Below, piece by piece: positions 4,526 to 41,220 of a stretch of 64,000 nt of DNA; the first letter of the stretch is position 1, and each line of letters starts with the position of its first letter. A model generated the notes under the pieces. It saw only the letters and a list, made by a program, of their open reading frames with translations, searched no databases and had not been told where the DNA came from. The translations under genes were made by a program, and so were the position numbers. The stretch comes from a virus. Lineage: Duplodnaviria; Caudoviricetes. Location of the stretch: the IMG/VR virus record IMGVR_UViG_3300029798_000001, one strand, 5' to 3'.

Positions 4526-5383
4526 TTAGCTTATTTTAGTTGCTGTATATCCACGATAAGTGCAATTATTCTTGCCTGTAGCCAGTATACTACCGTATCG
4601 TAATTTATGGAATTGACAGAATCTCTTTAAATCGTGTGTGCGAATCTCGATACTGACCCCATCTGGGTTGGTAAGTTTATATAAAACTTGTTGATTACTA
4701 TGCCCAGGTCGCCAGCCAGGCGGGCAAGTAAACAATAATACAGACTCAATTCCGTCAGTATACCACTTTTTGCCTTTGGCAGCCGCTGCGCCATTTTTCA
4801 TAGTTTGACTGATACGATTATTGACTTCTGTTGTAGCTATTGCTTTACCGGGTACCCAACCTAGCGGACATTCTTTAGCCATAGTATAGTTGGTTCCATC
4901 GGTGTACCACGAATAGCCTTTTATTTTGCTGACTTTGCCTTTACAATTTGGGAACGGGTTACATAGTCTTCCAGGAAAATAACCCTCTGGACATGTATGA
5001 GCGTGTTTTTCTGAATTACCATTATTAAACCATTTTTTGCCAGTGTTCTGTTTTTTAAGTTTTAATTTACCATTATCGTTAATCTTAAATCTTAATAATC
5101 CAGATCTAACAAAATGACGATTTAATAACAATGGATCTTTCCAATGCTCTCGAATGAGATTTTGTTCGTGATCGTATGCATCATCTGGGTTGAAAAATTC
5201 TGCTACAATCTCAGCATCGTATTCACCAAAATTTGATTCAGTAATATAAGTTGACGACGTAAAGTAATGTATTCCAAGATCATCAACGGACTGTAATTTT
5301 AATTCAATATTAGCAGATCTATACCCATAATAATATTCTTTAGTAAATTTATGGGTAAGTTTATAAACATACGCTAAGTACAT
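4526..5383 (-). mobile_element. Free-standing GIY-YIG (Seg-like) homing endonuclease with repeated NUMOD-type KKW(F/Y)(N/T)(N/D)G modules
   Basis: YVYKLTH...YYYGYRS, YFTSS, HEQNLI...LLNR; three W(F/Y)xxG...CPxGWxPG repeats. Confidence 0.8.
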
Positions 5384-36871: not shown

Positions 36872-36903
36872 ATGATTTTGAAATCTCAGCTAAGTATTTT
36901 AAT

Positions 36904-37691: not shown

Positions 37692-38174
37692 ATGGACCCT
37701 ACAAAAGAAAACACAGAATTAGATAAAATTCAAGCGCAATTCAACACAACCATGCTGAATAATACCGGTGCCTATACCGGAACAATTAGTACAGGCCTCA
37801 GCGAAGATACTATTACCTTGTCAAACACCGGTGGCGGATTTGCTTATCCTACCACCGTGATAGCAACTGGTGGCCCATATACTATTAGTGGCGGCACAGG
37901 TATTAGCCAGCCTTGGTATAGCACATCTGTCAGTCCAAAAATCAAGCTAGATGGCACCGGTGCTGACATCGAAGTCAACGGTTGGAGCTTGATTGATGCT
38001 ATCAAAAAGATCGAAGAACGCTTAAACATCCTAACTCCTAATACCAAATTAGAAGCGGAATGGGAAGAACTTCGTGCGCTAGGCGCCGAGTATCGTAAAC
38101 TAGAGCAACACATTAAGGACAAACAGGCTACATGGGACCGCTTGAAGGCCATGCCTCCACCTATAGTTGAATAA
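37692..38174 (+). CDS. Hypothetical protein with low-complexity N-terminus and coiled-coil C-terminus
   Basis: AAGGAG SD; IEERLNIL.PN.KLEAEWEEL. Confidence 0.7.
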   Translation: MDPTKENTELDKIQAQFNTTMLNNTGAYTGTISTGLSEDTITLSNTGGGFAYPTTVIATGGPYTISGGTGISQPWYSTSVSPKIKLDGTGADIEVNGWSLIDAIKKIEERLNILTPNTKLEAEWEELRALGAEYRKLEQHIKDKQATWDRLKAMPPPIVE

Positions 38175-38249
38175 TATACGCAGTTAACGGCAAAAACCTA
38201 TCAAAAATCATAGATTTTAGCCTTCCTGAACTAATAGGAACTAAGTATT

Positions 38250-38520
38250 TTAGAGAGTAGAAAAAACAACCAGGCTAACTTATGTTTAGCGGAGGATTAT
38301 AATCTTAGATCTACTCCACAACGGATGGCCAGTGCCGCAAAGCTGGTCCAGTTTTAAAGAGGACTTCGGAAATCCTCTTCATTGACAAATGGTATGAGCC
38401 CGGGTAAAGACAAAACCGCGCTTAGAGAGTATGGCACTGAGGCCCGAGGTCTTATTCTGTCTCCAGCTTAATCTCACCTGTCTTTGCACCCATCCTGGGA
38501 CTCCGCTGACACGCACAGTA
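38250..38520 (+). ncRNA. Candidate ~270-nt structured late leader/ncRNA upstream of cell-wall hydrolase
   Basis: After TAAGTA 38242; long-range TTAGCGGAG/CTCCGCTGA, GGATGG/CCATCC, AAAGACA/TGTCTTT; C(UUCG)G hairpin. Confidence 0.55.
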
Positions 38521-38539
38521 TTGCGATGAGGAGACGAAG

Positions 38540-39196
38540 ATGAAACTTAAAAACTTTCTTATATCGTTGTTAGTAGTTGGTAGTACCGCAGTAGTGGCAG
38601 AAGAAGTACAAGTAGCACAAGTAACATTTACAGATCAAATGATTAACCAGGCCAACACATTTGTTGAGCGTACAGTTAATATAATTGCAACTCCATTCTT
38701 ATCCGACAAGGATGTTGATTGTTTAGCTCGTAATATATTTTACGAGAGCGGCGGAGAATCAACCGAAGGCAAAATTGCTGTAGGTATTGTTACCGTTAAT
38801 CGCTCCCAAGACCCACGCTTTGGTAAGAGTGTATGCGAAGTAGTTAAAGCTCGCACAGTCGTTACAAAGACTCGCGAGGTCCGAAAGACCGAATTAGTCA
38901 AGGTCGGCTATTTTGGCAGCCCAGAAAAAATAACAACAGTACACACAGCCGTAGAACAAGTTCCGGTGTGCCAGTTCTCATGGGTATGTGGCGGCTATGC
39001 CAAGCACCCTAAATCCGATGATGAACGCTGGATAGAAAGTAAAGAAATTGCTGAAAATATTGCACACGGTGACTATGCAGAGTACCGTCTTAAGTACGGT
39101 GGCGCTATGTACTTCCATGCTACTGCTATTCGACCAGTTTGGGCAAAAACCAAGAAGTTTGTAACTAAGACTGGGCACCACTTATTCTACGAATAG
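38540..39196 (+). CDS. Cell-wall hydrolase (SleB/Hydrolase_2)
   Basis: Signal peptide; CLARNIFYESGGE, AVGIVTVNR, CQFSWVC, YFHA, HHLFY. Confidence 0.9.
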   Translation: MKLKNFLISLLVVGSTAVVAEEVQVAQVTFTDQMINQANTFVERTVNIIATPFLSDKDVDCLARNIFYESGGESTEGKIAVGIVTVNRSQDPRFGKSVCEVVKARTVVTKTREVRKTELVKVGYFGSPEKITTVHTAVEQVPVCQFSWVCGGYAKHPKSDDERWIESKEIAENIAHGDYAEYRLKYGGAMYFHATAIRPVWAKTKKFVTKTGHHLFYE

Positions 39197-39907: not shown

Positions 39908-40462
39908 ATGACCAACGATATACGCACCACTATTGACCTAGTAGAACAAACTACTCGTCCAACTAAACTAGAAACCACTCTATTGCCCTATACCCATACA
40001 GCGTTAGAGCCTGTAATGAGTGCAGAAACTATTGAATATCATTACGAGCACCTGGCGAAAGGTTATGCTAAACGTTATAACGCTGGCGAAGGCGATCCTG
40101 ATTTTAACCGTGCAGGGTCGTATCTCCATAACAAATTCTTTCCACAACTTCATGCACCAAAAGGAGCAAATCGCCCTAAAGGTGCTGTATTAGAACTAAT
40201 TGAAACTAACTTTAAAACATATGAAGACTTTAAAGATGAATTTAAAAAGGTGGCCATGGCCGTCGAGGGATCGGGCTGGATATATCTCAGCACACAGGGC
40301 ACGATTAAAACAATCAAGAATCATGCGGTTAGACTCGATATCTGTGTTCTCGTTGATTTCTGGGAGCATTCATGGGCGACGGACTACCAGTGGGACAAAG
40401 AACGATATCTAGATAACATCTGGAAAATAATTAACTGGGACATTTGCAATGAGAGAATATGA
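39908..40462 (+). CDS. sod: Fe/Mn superoxide dismutase with N-terminal extension
   Basis: LPY..ALEP, HYEH, LHNKFF, GSGW, DFWEHSW. Confidence 0.9.
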   Translation: MTNDIRTTIDLVEQTTRPTKLETTLLPYTHTALEPVMSAETIEYHYEHLAKGYAKRYNAGEGDPDFNRAGSYLHNKFFPQLHAPKGANRPKGAVLELIETNFKTYEDFKDEFKKVAMAVEGSGWIYLSTQGTIKTIKNHAVRLDICVLVDFWEHSWATDYQWDKERYLDNIWKIINWDICNERI

Positions 40463-41220
40463 ATTATCAAAAGATCTATGATAGTATCATAGAAAATGCT
40501 AAACAGCGTAACTGGACTAGAAAAACAGCACCAATTTATGTTGAGTATCATCACATTGTGCCTAGATCGTTAAACGGCTCAGATAGTGCCGATAATCTTG
40601 TATTCCTAACGTATCAAGAGCATTTTCTTGGCCACTGGCTATTGTACAAATCGTCTGTGGGGATTAATAAATCTAAAATGGCAAATGCTTGGTTTCGTAT
40701 GTGCCAAAGTAATGAATTTCAAATTAGAAACAGTAAGCATTATTCAAAAGCTAGACAAGCATTTTCGGACAACAATCCGTTCAAAGATCCTGAAATAATC
40801 AAAATAGTTAAACGTAGAATGACTGATAATAATCCGATGAAAAATCCTAAAAATGCGGCTAAAGTAAGCAAGGCACTAAAAGGAAAAATGGTAGGAGAAA
40901 AGAATGGCTTCTATAATCAAAAACATTCAATACAAACCCTAGAAAAAATATCCGGCATAAATCATTATACACAAAAAGAAGGTTATGTAGCACCTGTTGT
41001 ATCTGCTGAAACTCGAAAAAAGCATAGTTTAGCAAAAAAAGGAAAACCTAATCCTACGATGTCGCAACTTAATCGAGATAAAGCTGCTACTTGGAAAATA
41101 ACTACTCCAGCCGGCGAAGAACTTATTATTAAGAATATAAACAACTGGGCAACTGAGCAAAAGATTAGCCCACATTGGTTATATAGAAATAGACGCGGAT
41201 ATAAGGCGGTAAAATTATGA
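40459..41220 (+). mobile_element. Free-standing HNH homing endonuclease with NUMOD3-like tail
   Basis: EYHHIVPRSLNG...NLV.L..QEHFLGH; GEKNGFY..KHS..T.EKIS. Confidence 0.85.

Follow-up and report, generated by a model that had tools for sequence, protein, structure and literature searches.

What occupies the 365 nt that separate two open reading frames in the genome of a tailed virus (Duplodnaviria; Caudoviricetes; IMG/VR record IMGVR_UViG_3300029798_000001), and does it act on the gene that follows? The 64,000-nt stretch of this genome that was analysed is referred to here as the window, and relatives of the locus are designated by L and a number. The gap lies between an ORF that matches no family and a gene for a SleB-like cell-wall hydrolase of the endolysin type, whose 218-aa product has an N-terminal hydrophobic, signal-like segment. 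Judged from sequence alone, the ~290 bases 5' of the endolysin gene of this giant freshwater phage are a strongly conserved, pseudoknotted non-coding RNA, which probably controls the amount of lysis enzyme that is made. The features on which this reading relies are collected in Table 1. Beyond the hydrolase gene, a 253-aa ORF (40459-41220) with a NUMOD3 motif, a homing-endonuclease DNA-binding module, was observed directly 3' of an Fe/Mn superoxide dismutase gene (39908-40462).

Table 1. Features of the leader RNA and of its flanking genes, in window coordinates.
Feature	Position	Strand	Description
Upstream ORF	37692-38174		160 aa; Pfam or PHROG family: none
TAAGTA box	38241-38248	+	CTAAGTAT; candidate late-promoter element
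H1	38255-38316	+	GAGUAGA 38255-61 / UCUACUC 38310-16; encloses H2
H2	38274-38290	+	One-bulge hairpin GCUAAC/GUUUAGC; loop length varies; 97% paired
PKa	38322-24 / 38335-37	+	Small pseudoknot, CGG with CCG in the H3 loop; 97% paired
H3	38328-32 / 38343-47	+	Hairpin; 98.6% paired; 5/5 pairs change on both sides
H4	38357-38379	+	Hairpin AAGAGGA-C(UUCG)G-AAA bulge-UCCUCUU; nearly invariant; 99.8% paired
P_L	38380-38486	+	CAUUGACA 38380-87 / UGUCAAUG 38479-86 (consensus); 94% paired
H5	38393-38426	+	Long imperfect stem 38393-403 / 38416-26; A-rich loop (GAAACAAA in consensus)
Junction	38427-38454	+	GAGUAUGGCACUGAGGCCCGAGGUCUU; near-invariant, with consecutive invariant columns across the 83 sequences
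Linker	38455-38478	+	Pyrimidine-rich, ~15-45 nt; length and sequence vary across alignment A2
H7	38488-38500	+	Short hairpin GCCC-AUCCU-GGGC (consensus) with conserved AUCCU loop; 98% paired
3' H-type pseudoknot	38505-38526	+	S1, GCUG 38505-08 / CAGU 38516-19; S2, 38511-15 / 38522-26
Shine-Dalgarno and start	38528-38542	+	GAGGAG (GGAG 38530-33); ATG start at 38540
Endolysin gene	38540-39196	+	SleB-like cell-wall hydrolase, 218 aa; Pfam Hydrolase_2, E = 1.3e-17; PHROG 938 endolysin

Relatives of the locus were gathered through both flanking proteins and then by exact-pattern scans with the invariant H4 sequence, and at least 174 contigs, viral or from freshwater metagenomes, contained the leader RNA. 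With nhmmer, the element was detected in 174 of the 180 loci that were fetched first, which provided 103 unique full-length copies. The H4-pattern scan of IMG/VR returned 38 contigs, several of them 100-344 kb long, a size that indicates jumbo phages, and the same scan of freshwater-lake metagenomes returned at least 120 contigs. In the genome collection a single match was obtained, a 2370-bp contig (L180; CAITCX010000170.1) assigned to an uncultured Dehalococcoidia MAG; it carries the leader, with 92% nucleotide identity to the window, together with the hydrolase gene, and is probably a mis-binned phage contig. A looser pattern (CCGAGGTCT...GTCAATG) gave mostly chance matches, and its sole true new member was the very divergent L244. 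Matching sequencing runs comprised 20 DNA runs of freshwater, pond or sediment origin from 9 studies, and no RNA run was among those listed. The leader is widespread in lake phages, recovered by several independent freshwater studies, and more than 100 of its natural variants have been aligned. Among cultured phages, blastn of the RNA against 50,697 GenBank phage records yielded no match, and the closest hydrolase relatives (Methylophilales phage Melnitz, 27% amino acid identity) do not have the leader, the genes overlapping there. For a 1045-aa ORF of the window, no relative in a cultured phage was found either.

The element occurs once per locus, the window included, and its position relative to the hydrolase gene is constant: a Hydrolase_2 gene follows immediately 3', on the same strand, in 139 of the 139 loci that have at least 500 nt of downstream DNA, so the connection to a peptidoglycan hydrolase that an earlier note on this DNA had put forward held wherever it could be assessed. 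The leader RNA is better conserved than any flanking protein, with median identities to the window of 80% for the RNA (nucleotides), 33% for the hydrolase and 53% for the upstream ORF (amino acids). Two hydrolase subtypes share the leader: one of ~218 aa has a signal-peptide-like N-terminus, and the other, of ~186 aa, an internal N-terminal anchor. Both belong to Pfam Hydrolase_2, and the identity between them is only ~30%. The type of RNA does not track the type of hydrolase, as illustrated by L003, in which the hydrolase is 78% identical in amino acids and the RNA 57% identical in nucleotides. In some relatives, ~1.1-1.4 kb are inserted between the upstream-ORF homolog and the leader (L013, 3001-3507 compared with 4890-5233; L014, 3001-3402 compared with 4528-4861), from which it follows that the leader travels with the hydrolase gene and not with the upstream gene. 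These comparisons establish a coupling, both physical and evolutionary, between the leader RNA and the ribosome-binding site of a phage endolysin gene.

The element does not behave as a coding sequence. Its longest open frames change strand and frame between close relatives, and the indels in its loops are not multiples of 3, which indicates that it is non-coding; a small protein-coding gene was rejected, since no reading frame is conserved in one frame and strand. Rfam 15, run over the whole window at gathering thresholds, gave 0 matches, and at E ≤ 10 on positions 38150-38600 it gave two chance-level matches only (E ~3.5). A tRNA/tmRNA scan was negative, and the literature searches found no description of the leader motif. 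Going by these searches and the alignment, the leader lies outside all catalogued families and is a new, widespread and strongly constrained structured RNA.

Since the conservation of the RNA exceeds that of any flanking protein, and very high conservation would also suit such a role, we considered whether a large RNA with so ornate a fold acts in trans, as a stand-alone or processed molecule, or is a ribozyme, and has only its transcription in common with the endolysin gene. The stand-alone alternative had been raised in the earlier note. It is disfavoured by the absence of a conserved terminator before the ORF (the U-run that follows the hairpin at 38438-54 is missing in many relatives), by the presence of the hydrolase gene at all 139 loci that could be assessed, and by the fixed spacing between pseudoknot, Shine-Dalgarno sequence and start codon; in addition, no ribozyme family of Rfam is matched. 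We regard this explanation as improbable. The RNAs of the Rfam families GOLLD and ROOL are stand-alone molecules of 500-800 nt that are often located near tRNAs. The leader resembles them in being phage-borne, strongly conserved, present in freshwater metagenomes and endowed with multiple pseudoknots, but it is only ~290 nt long, is always fused to the ribosome-binding site of the endolysin ORF and matches no Rfam model.

The secondary structure was derived from an alignment of 83 non-redundant representatives less than 97% identical (A2), which was made with MAFFT and was not fitted to any structure; helices were obtained from mutual information (MI) and tested by pair counting against shuffled partners. 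In the resulting 61-pair model, 92.1% of the cells were paired, compared with 83.0% for the shuffled partners (0 of 500 shuffles as high) and with 32-45% for slid controls. Changes on both sides were observed at 39 pairs, and compensated cells numbered 434 against an expectation of 130. The earlier note's proposal of a large structured non-coding RNA is therefore supported by its conservation in 83 relatives and by covarying helices, and the covarying homologs that it had suggested searching for with nhmmer do exist. The invariant core yields no covariation signal. Folding of the single sequence was not above chance, the minimum free energy (MFE) being −88.3 kcal/mol compared with −87.8 ± 5.2 kcal/mol for shuffled sequences (z = −0.09).

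A different architecture had been read from the single sequence, namely four nested long-range helices closed by TTAGCGGAG/CTCCGCTGA, with GAGTAGA/TCTACTC crossing them to form a pseudoknot or switch. The letters of all four helices are present: the outer one at 38286-94 and 38501-09 (and not 38500-08, as had been noted, one position off), GGATGG 38323-28 with CCATCC 38490-95, AAAGACA 38406-12 with TGTCTTT 38479-85, and AGAGTA 38426-31 with TATTCT 38453-58, the last with one G-T. Their pairing, in contrast, is not conserved. Neither the outer closing helix nor the other three show covariation; taken jointly, 74.3% of the cells were paired compared with 74.5% for shuffled columns, 482 of 500 shuffles were at least as high, and compensated cells were fewer than expected. 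About 20 relatives have uncompensated one-sided changes in GCGGAGG, and the outer-helix pair G38289-C38506 is unpaired in 25 of 76 sequences, a G-G mismatch that arises because C38506 covaries with G38518 instead. Over 9 nt, the consensus sequences UCAGCGGAG and CUCCGCUGA show perfect complementarity and could pair transiently as an alternative to H2 plus S1, but the 5' strand is wholly absent from the short natural forms described below, and we give this fold hardly any credence. Without covariation support for the outer helix, its crossing by GAGTAGA/TCTACTC does not amount to a pseudoknot; the GAGTAGA/TCTACTC helix itself is genuine, being retained through compensatory changes as H1, and the real pseudoknots lie elsewhere, in PKa and in S1/S2.

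In the 5' domain, H1 (helices 1-2 in the counting) had 97% of its cells paired, and five of its seven pairs change on both sides; in L004, L028, L038, L119 and L130, for example, GAGUAG/CUACUC is replaced by GAACAG/CUGUUC. The strongest variation in H2 was seen at the pair 76:88, which is AU in 33 sequences, UA in 31 and GC in 9 (MI 1.19). PKa contains two covarying positions, with CG changed to GC in L149 and L109 and GC changed to AU in L143. The local CCAG/CTGG pairing (38329-32 with 38343-46) and the TTCG-capped hairpin at 38357-79, both of which had been pointed out from the single sequence, are present and kept through compensatory changes. Natural short forms of 205-226 nt (L031, L045, L098, L112, L123 and L051) do not have H1, H2 and H3 at all, while they retain H4, P_L, H5, the junction, H7, the pseudoknot, the Shine-Dalgarno sequence and the hydrolase gene. 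From these forms it follows that the 5' domain is accessory and that the fold cannot be closed by the outer helix.

The core begins with H4, where two pairs are compensated in the divergent L244 (AGAGAC/GUCUCU). RNAalifold proposed for the apex of this hairpin a long-range pairing of GGACUUCGG with CCGAGGUCU, which was rejected because L244 compensates the local H4 instead; the local hairpin is favoured on this basis. The same long-range pairing would be needed for a transcription attenuator, in which the hairpin at 38438-54 and the U-rich sequence after it terminate transcription unless the antiterminator formed by 38362-70 and 38443-51 intervenes. A terminator-like site was indeed flagged at 38438-54, in the window only, some relatives have UCUUUUCUUUUG after the hairpin, and the pairing that RNAalifold suggests comprises 9 bp of invariant bases. 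Against this, the stem includes two G-U pairs and has a loop of 3 nt, and is accordingly weak; L244 breaks the proposed antiterminator pairing while maintaining H4; and many relatives have no U-tract (L020, for example, reads GGUCUACAUCUGUCC). An intrinsic terminator or attenuator was accordingly dropped as a feature of the family, and we consider it highly improbable.

P_L is the only supported long-range helix, and it encloses H5, the conserved junction and the variable linker. Its 3' strand in the window is UGUCUUUG, which introduces two internal mismatches; among the relatives, A-U is changed to G-U in seven sequences and to G-C in L089 and L051, and a U-A pair is swapped to A-U in L004. 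Nine of the 11 pairs of H5 change on both sides, and the pairs 38398:38421, 38399:38420 and 38401:38418 stand out by MI. Within the junction, a small hairpin (38438-44 with 38448-54) is possible, which is 94% paired and almost never varies; no consistent pairing of the linker was found across A2. In H7, changes of CG to UA occur in 19 and 8 sequences, and a search for partners of its loop (candidates ACGGAU and AGGAU) revealed no convincing covariation.

The last structured module is the 3' pseudoknot, which adjoins the Shine-Dalgarno sequence, in agreement with the earlier suggestion of structure near this site. Its strands follow the order S1-5', S2-5', S1-3', S2-3' of an H-type pseudoknot, and both stems are supported. 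In S1, 332 of 332 cells are paired and two pairs change on both sides: C38506-G38518 is CG in 58 sequences and GC in 25, never unpaired, and the next pair takes the forms U-A, C-G, G-C and A-U across several lineages unrelated to one another (L030, L098, L120, L089 and L244). All five pairs of S2 change on both sides. Across the family, GGAG is located 2-4 nt 3' of S2 and 6-9 nt 5' of the start codon. UCC at 38502-04 is able to pair with GGA of the Shine-Dalgarno sequence (74-99% paired), the changes being one-sided only and the Shine-Dalgarno sequence being conserved anyway; in nested folding of the 3' module, CUCC closes on GGAG in the window, and UCC closes on the Shine-Dalgarno GGA in L020 and L013. 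A scan for anti-Shine-Dalgarno sequences gave five pyrimidine-rich candidates, none of them distinctive. The start codon is TTG in 45, ATG in 30 and GTG in 7 of 82 relatives, an unusually high share of weak starts for one gene family, seen among the endolysin genes behind the leader.

The nested fold of the 3' module in the window can also be read as a kink-turn that sequesters the ribosome-binding site and to which an L7Ae-type protein may bind. The C-stem would be CUCC/GGAG, followed by a 3-nt bulge (GCU), tandem sheared pairs (G38508-A38529 and A38509-G38528) and the S2 hairpin as NC stem; the window sequence fits the consensus, and the nested MFE structure has this same arrangement of stem, internal loop and stem. 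The relatives argue otherwise, since the dinucleotide before GGAG is GA in only 29 of 83 and AA in 39, and 12 read GGGAG, and since the supposed bulge nucleotides C38506 and U38507, along with G38508, are Watson-Crick paired with 38516-18 in all 83 sequences and covary. We did not retain the kink-turn as a family feature and think its formation very unlikely.

Taken as a whole, these results suggest that ~38252-38539 would be the 5' leader of the late endolysin mRNA, folding into a conserved multi-domain RNA with an optional 5' domain (H1, H2 and H3 with the small pseudoknot), an obligatory core (H4, the long-range P_L enclosing H5 and the invariant junction, and H7) and a 3' pseudoknot of the H type with 2-4 nt between its end and the Shine-Dalgarno sequence. 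We infer that the leader acts in cis on the translation initiation of the Hydrolase_2 endolysin and that it does so by switching. The folded core would set the state of the 3' module, either the pseudoknot (S1 and S2) or the pairing of UCC, just 5' of S1, with GGA of the Shine-Dalgarno sequence; on geometric reasoning, the pseudoknot and the Shine-Dalgarno pairing should be mutually exclusive, and the choice between them would gate the access of the ribosome. A small molecule, a protein or the ribosome are candidate effectors. Control of endolysin translation through this 3' module is the most economical reading and the one that we favour, and we hold it to be reasonably probable.

A conserved, covariation-supported, aptamer-like fold in a 5' UTR is one of the features of riboswitches as a generic class, and this the leader has. 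As for an expression platform, no alternative helix with covariation was detected and no terminator is conserved, the pairing of UCC with the Shine-Dalgarno GGA being possible with one-sided changes. It is conceivable, though we propose it only tentatively, that the leader represents a new riboswitch class found only in giant freshwater phages, whose ~210-nt core binds a host metabolite or second messenger. If this were true, endolysin translation would be set by the ligand, and the phage would time lysis according to the physiological state of the infected cell. preQ1-II and SAM-II are translational riboswitch classes in which a pseudoknot abuts or includes the Shine-Dalgarno sequence. Like their leaders, the one described here is located in cis, as a 5' leader whose covarying stems surround unpaired nucleotides of high conservation, and has variable peripheral stems, an optional accessory domain and an H-type pseudoknot directly beside the Shine-Dalgarno sequence; unlike them, it has an obligatory core of ~210 nt, which is much larger, and matches no Rfam model.

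A passive role would require no switching: the leader could protect the 5' end of the late mRNA from decay or could serve as a fixed enhancer or standby site for translation from the start codon, which is often a weak TTG. It is compatible with the start of H1 at about the inferred 5' end of the transcript, with the TTG starts of 55% of the relatives and with the fact that no conserved alternative pairing has been demonstrated. Nevertheless, an obligatory, near-invariant core of ~210 nt with two pseudoknots far exceeds the needs of known stabiliser hairpins, and the junctions, unpaired and invariant, are suggestive of a surface that binds specifically; hence we judge a purely passive leader unlikely. 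The timing of phage lysis is usually ascribed to holins and antiholins; a large RNA with two pseudoknots before an endolysin gene, conserved far above the enzyme, hints that lysis control has a further layer, not recognised so far. As a candidate for a new class of riboswitch or of RNA-protein regulation, the leader is well defined.

The CTAAGTA that had been noticed at the start of the leader is present at 38241-47, and its TAAGTA (38242-47) is invariant in 83 of 83 aligned relatives, including the short forms without H1. The degenerate form MTAAGTAW matches 13 times in the window, always on the + strand and in several cases just 5' of ORF starts; the positions include 17200, 36890, 38241, 39631, 39896, 41247, 55030, 55433, 55916, 56168, 60806 and 61235. 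This total is not above chance (15.2 matches expected), and some copies are separated from a following start codon by only 4-6 nt; for these two reasons, we say only that the box may be a phage late promoter. The transcript would then probably start a few bases 3' of it, near 38252-38256. The copy at 36890 lies directly 3' of a terminator-like hairpin with a T-run.

Two leaders of phage T4 offer precedents for mRNA structure in this context. In gene e, which encodes lysozyme, a simple inhibitory hairpin forms only in early read-through transcripts, the late promoter lying inside the hairpin; the gene 32 leader contains a conserved pseudoknot that is used in translational regulation. With gene 32, the leader described here has in common a conserved pseudoknot, and with gene e the late or lysis-gene context and a structure near the ribosome-binding site, where we would expect it to exert control. 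In contrast to gene e, the entire 290-nt structure here lies 3' of the candidate promoter box; it is much more elaborate, and its conservation exceeds that of the protein. An early/late switch of the gene e type does not agree with this order, the invariant TAAGTA box being 5' of all conserved helices. Finally, the ~75 nt 5' of the box (38165-38240) are also conserved among the relatives, loci with short forms included; they contain a TATAAT-like box at the stop of the upstream ORF, a GGYAAAAA...UUUURCC hairpin and a second small hairpin, and may be a terminator or early-promoter region.
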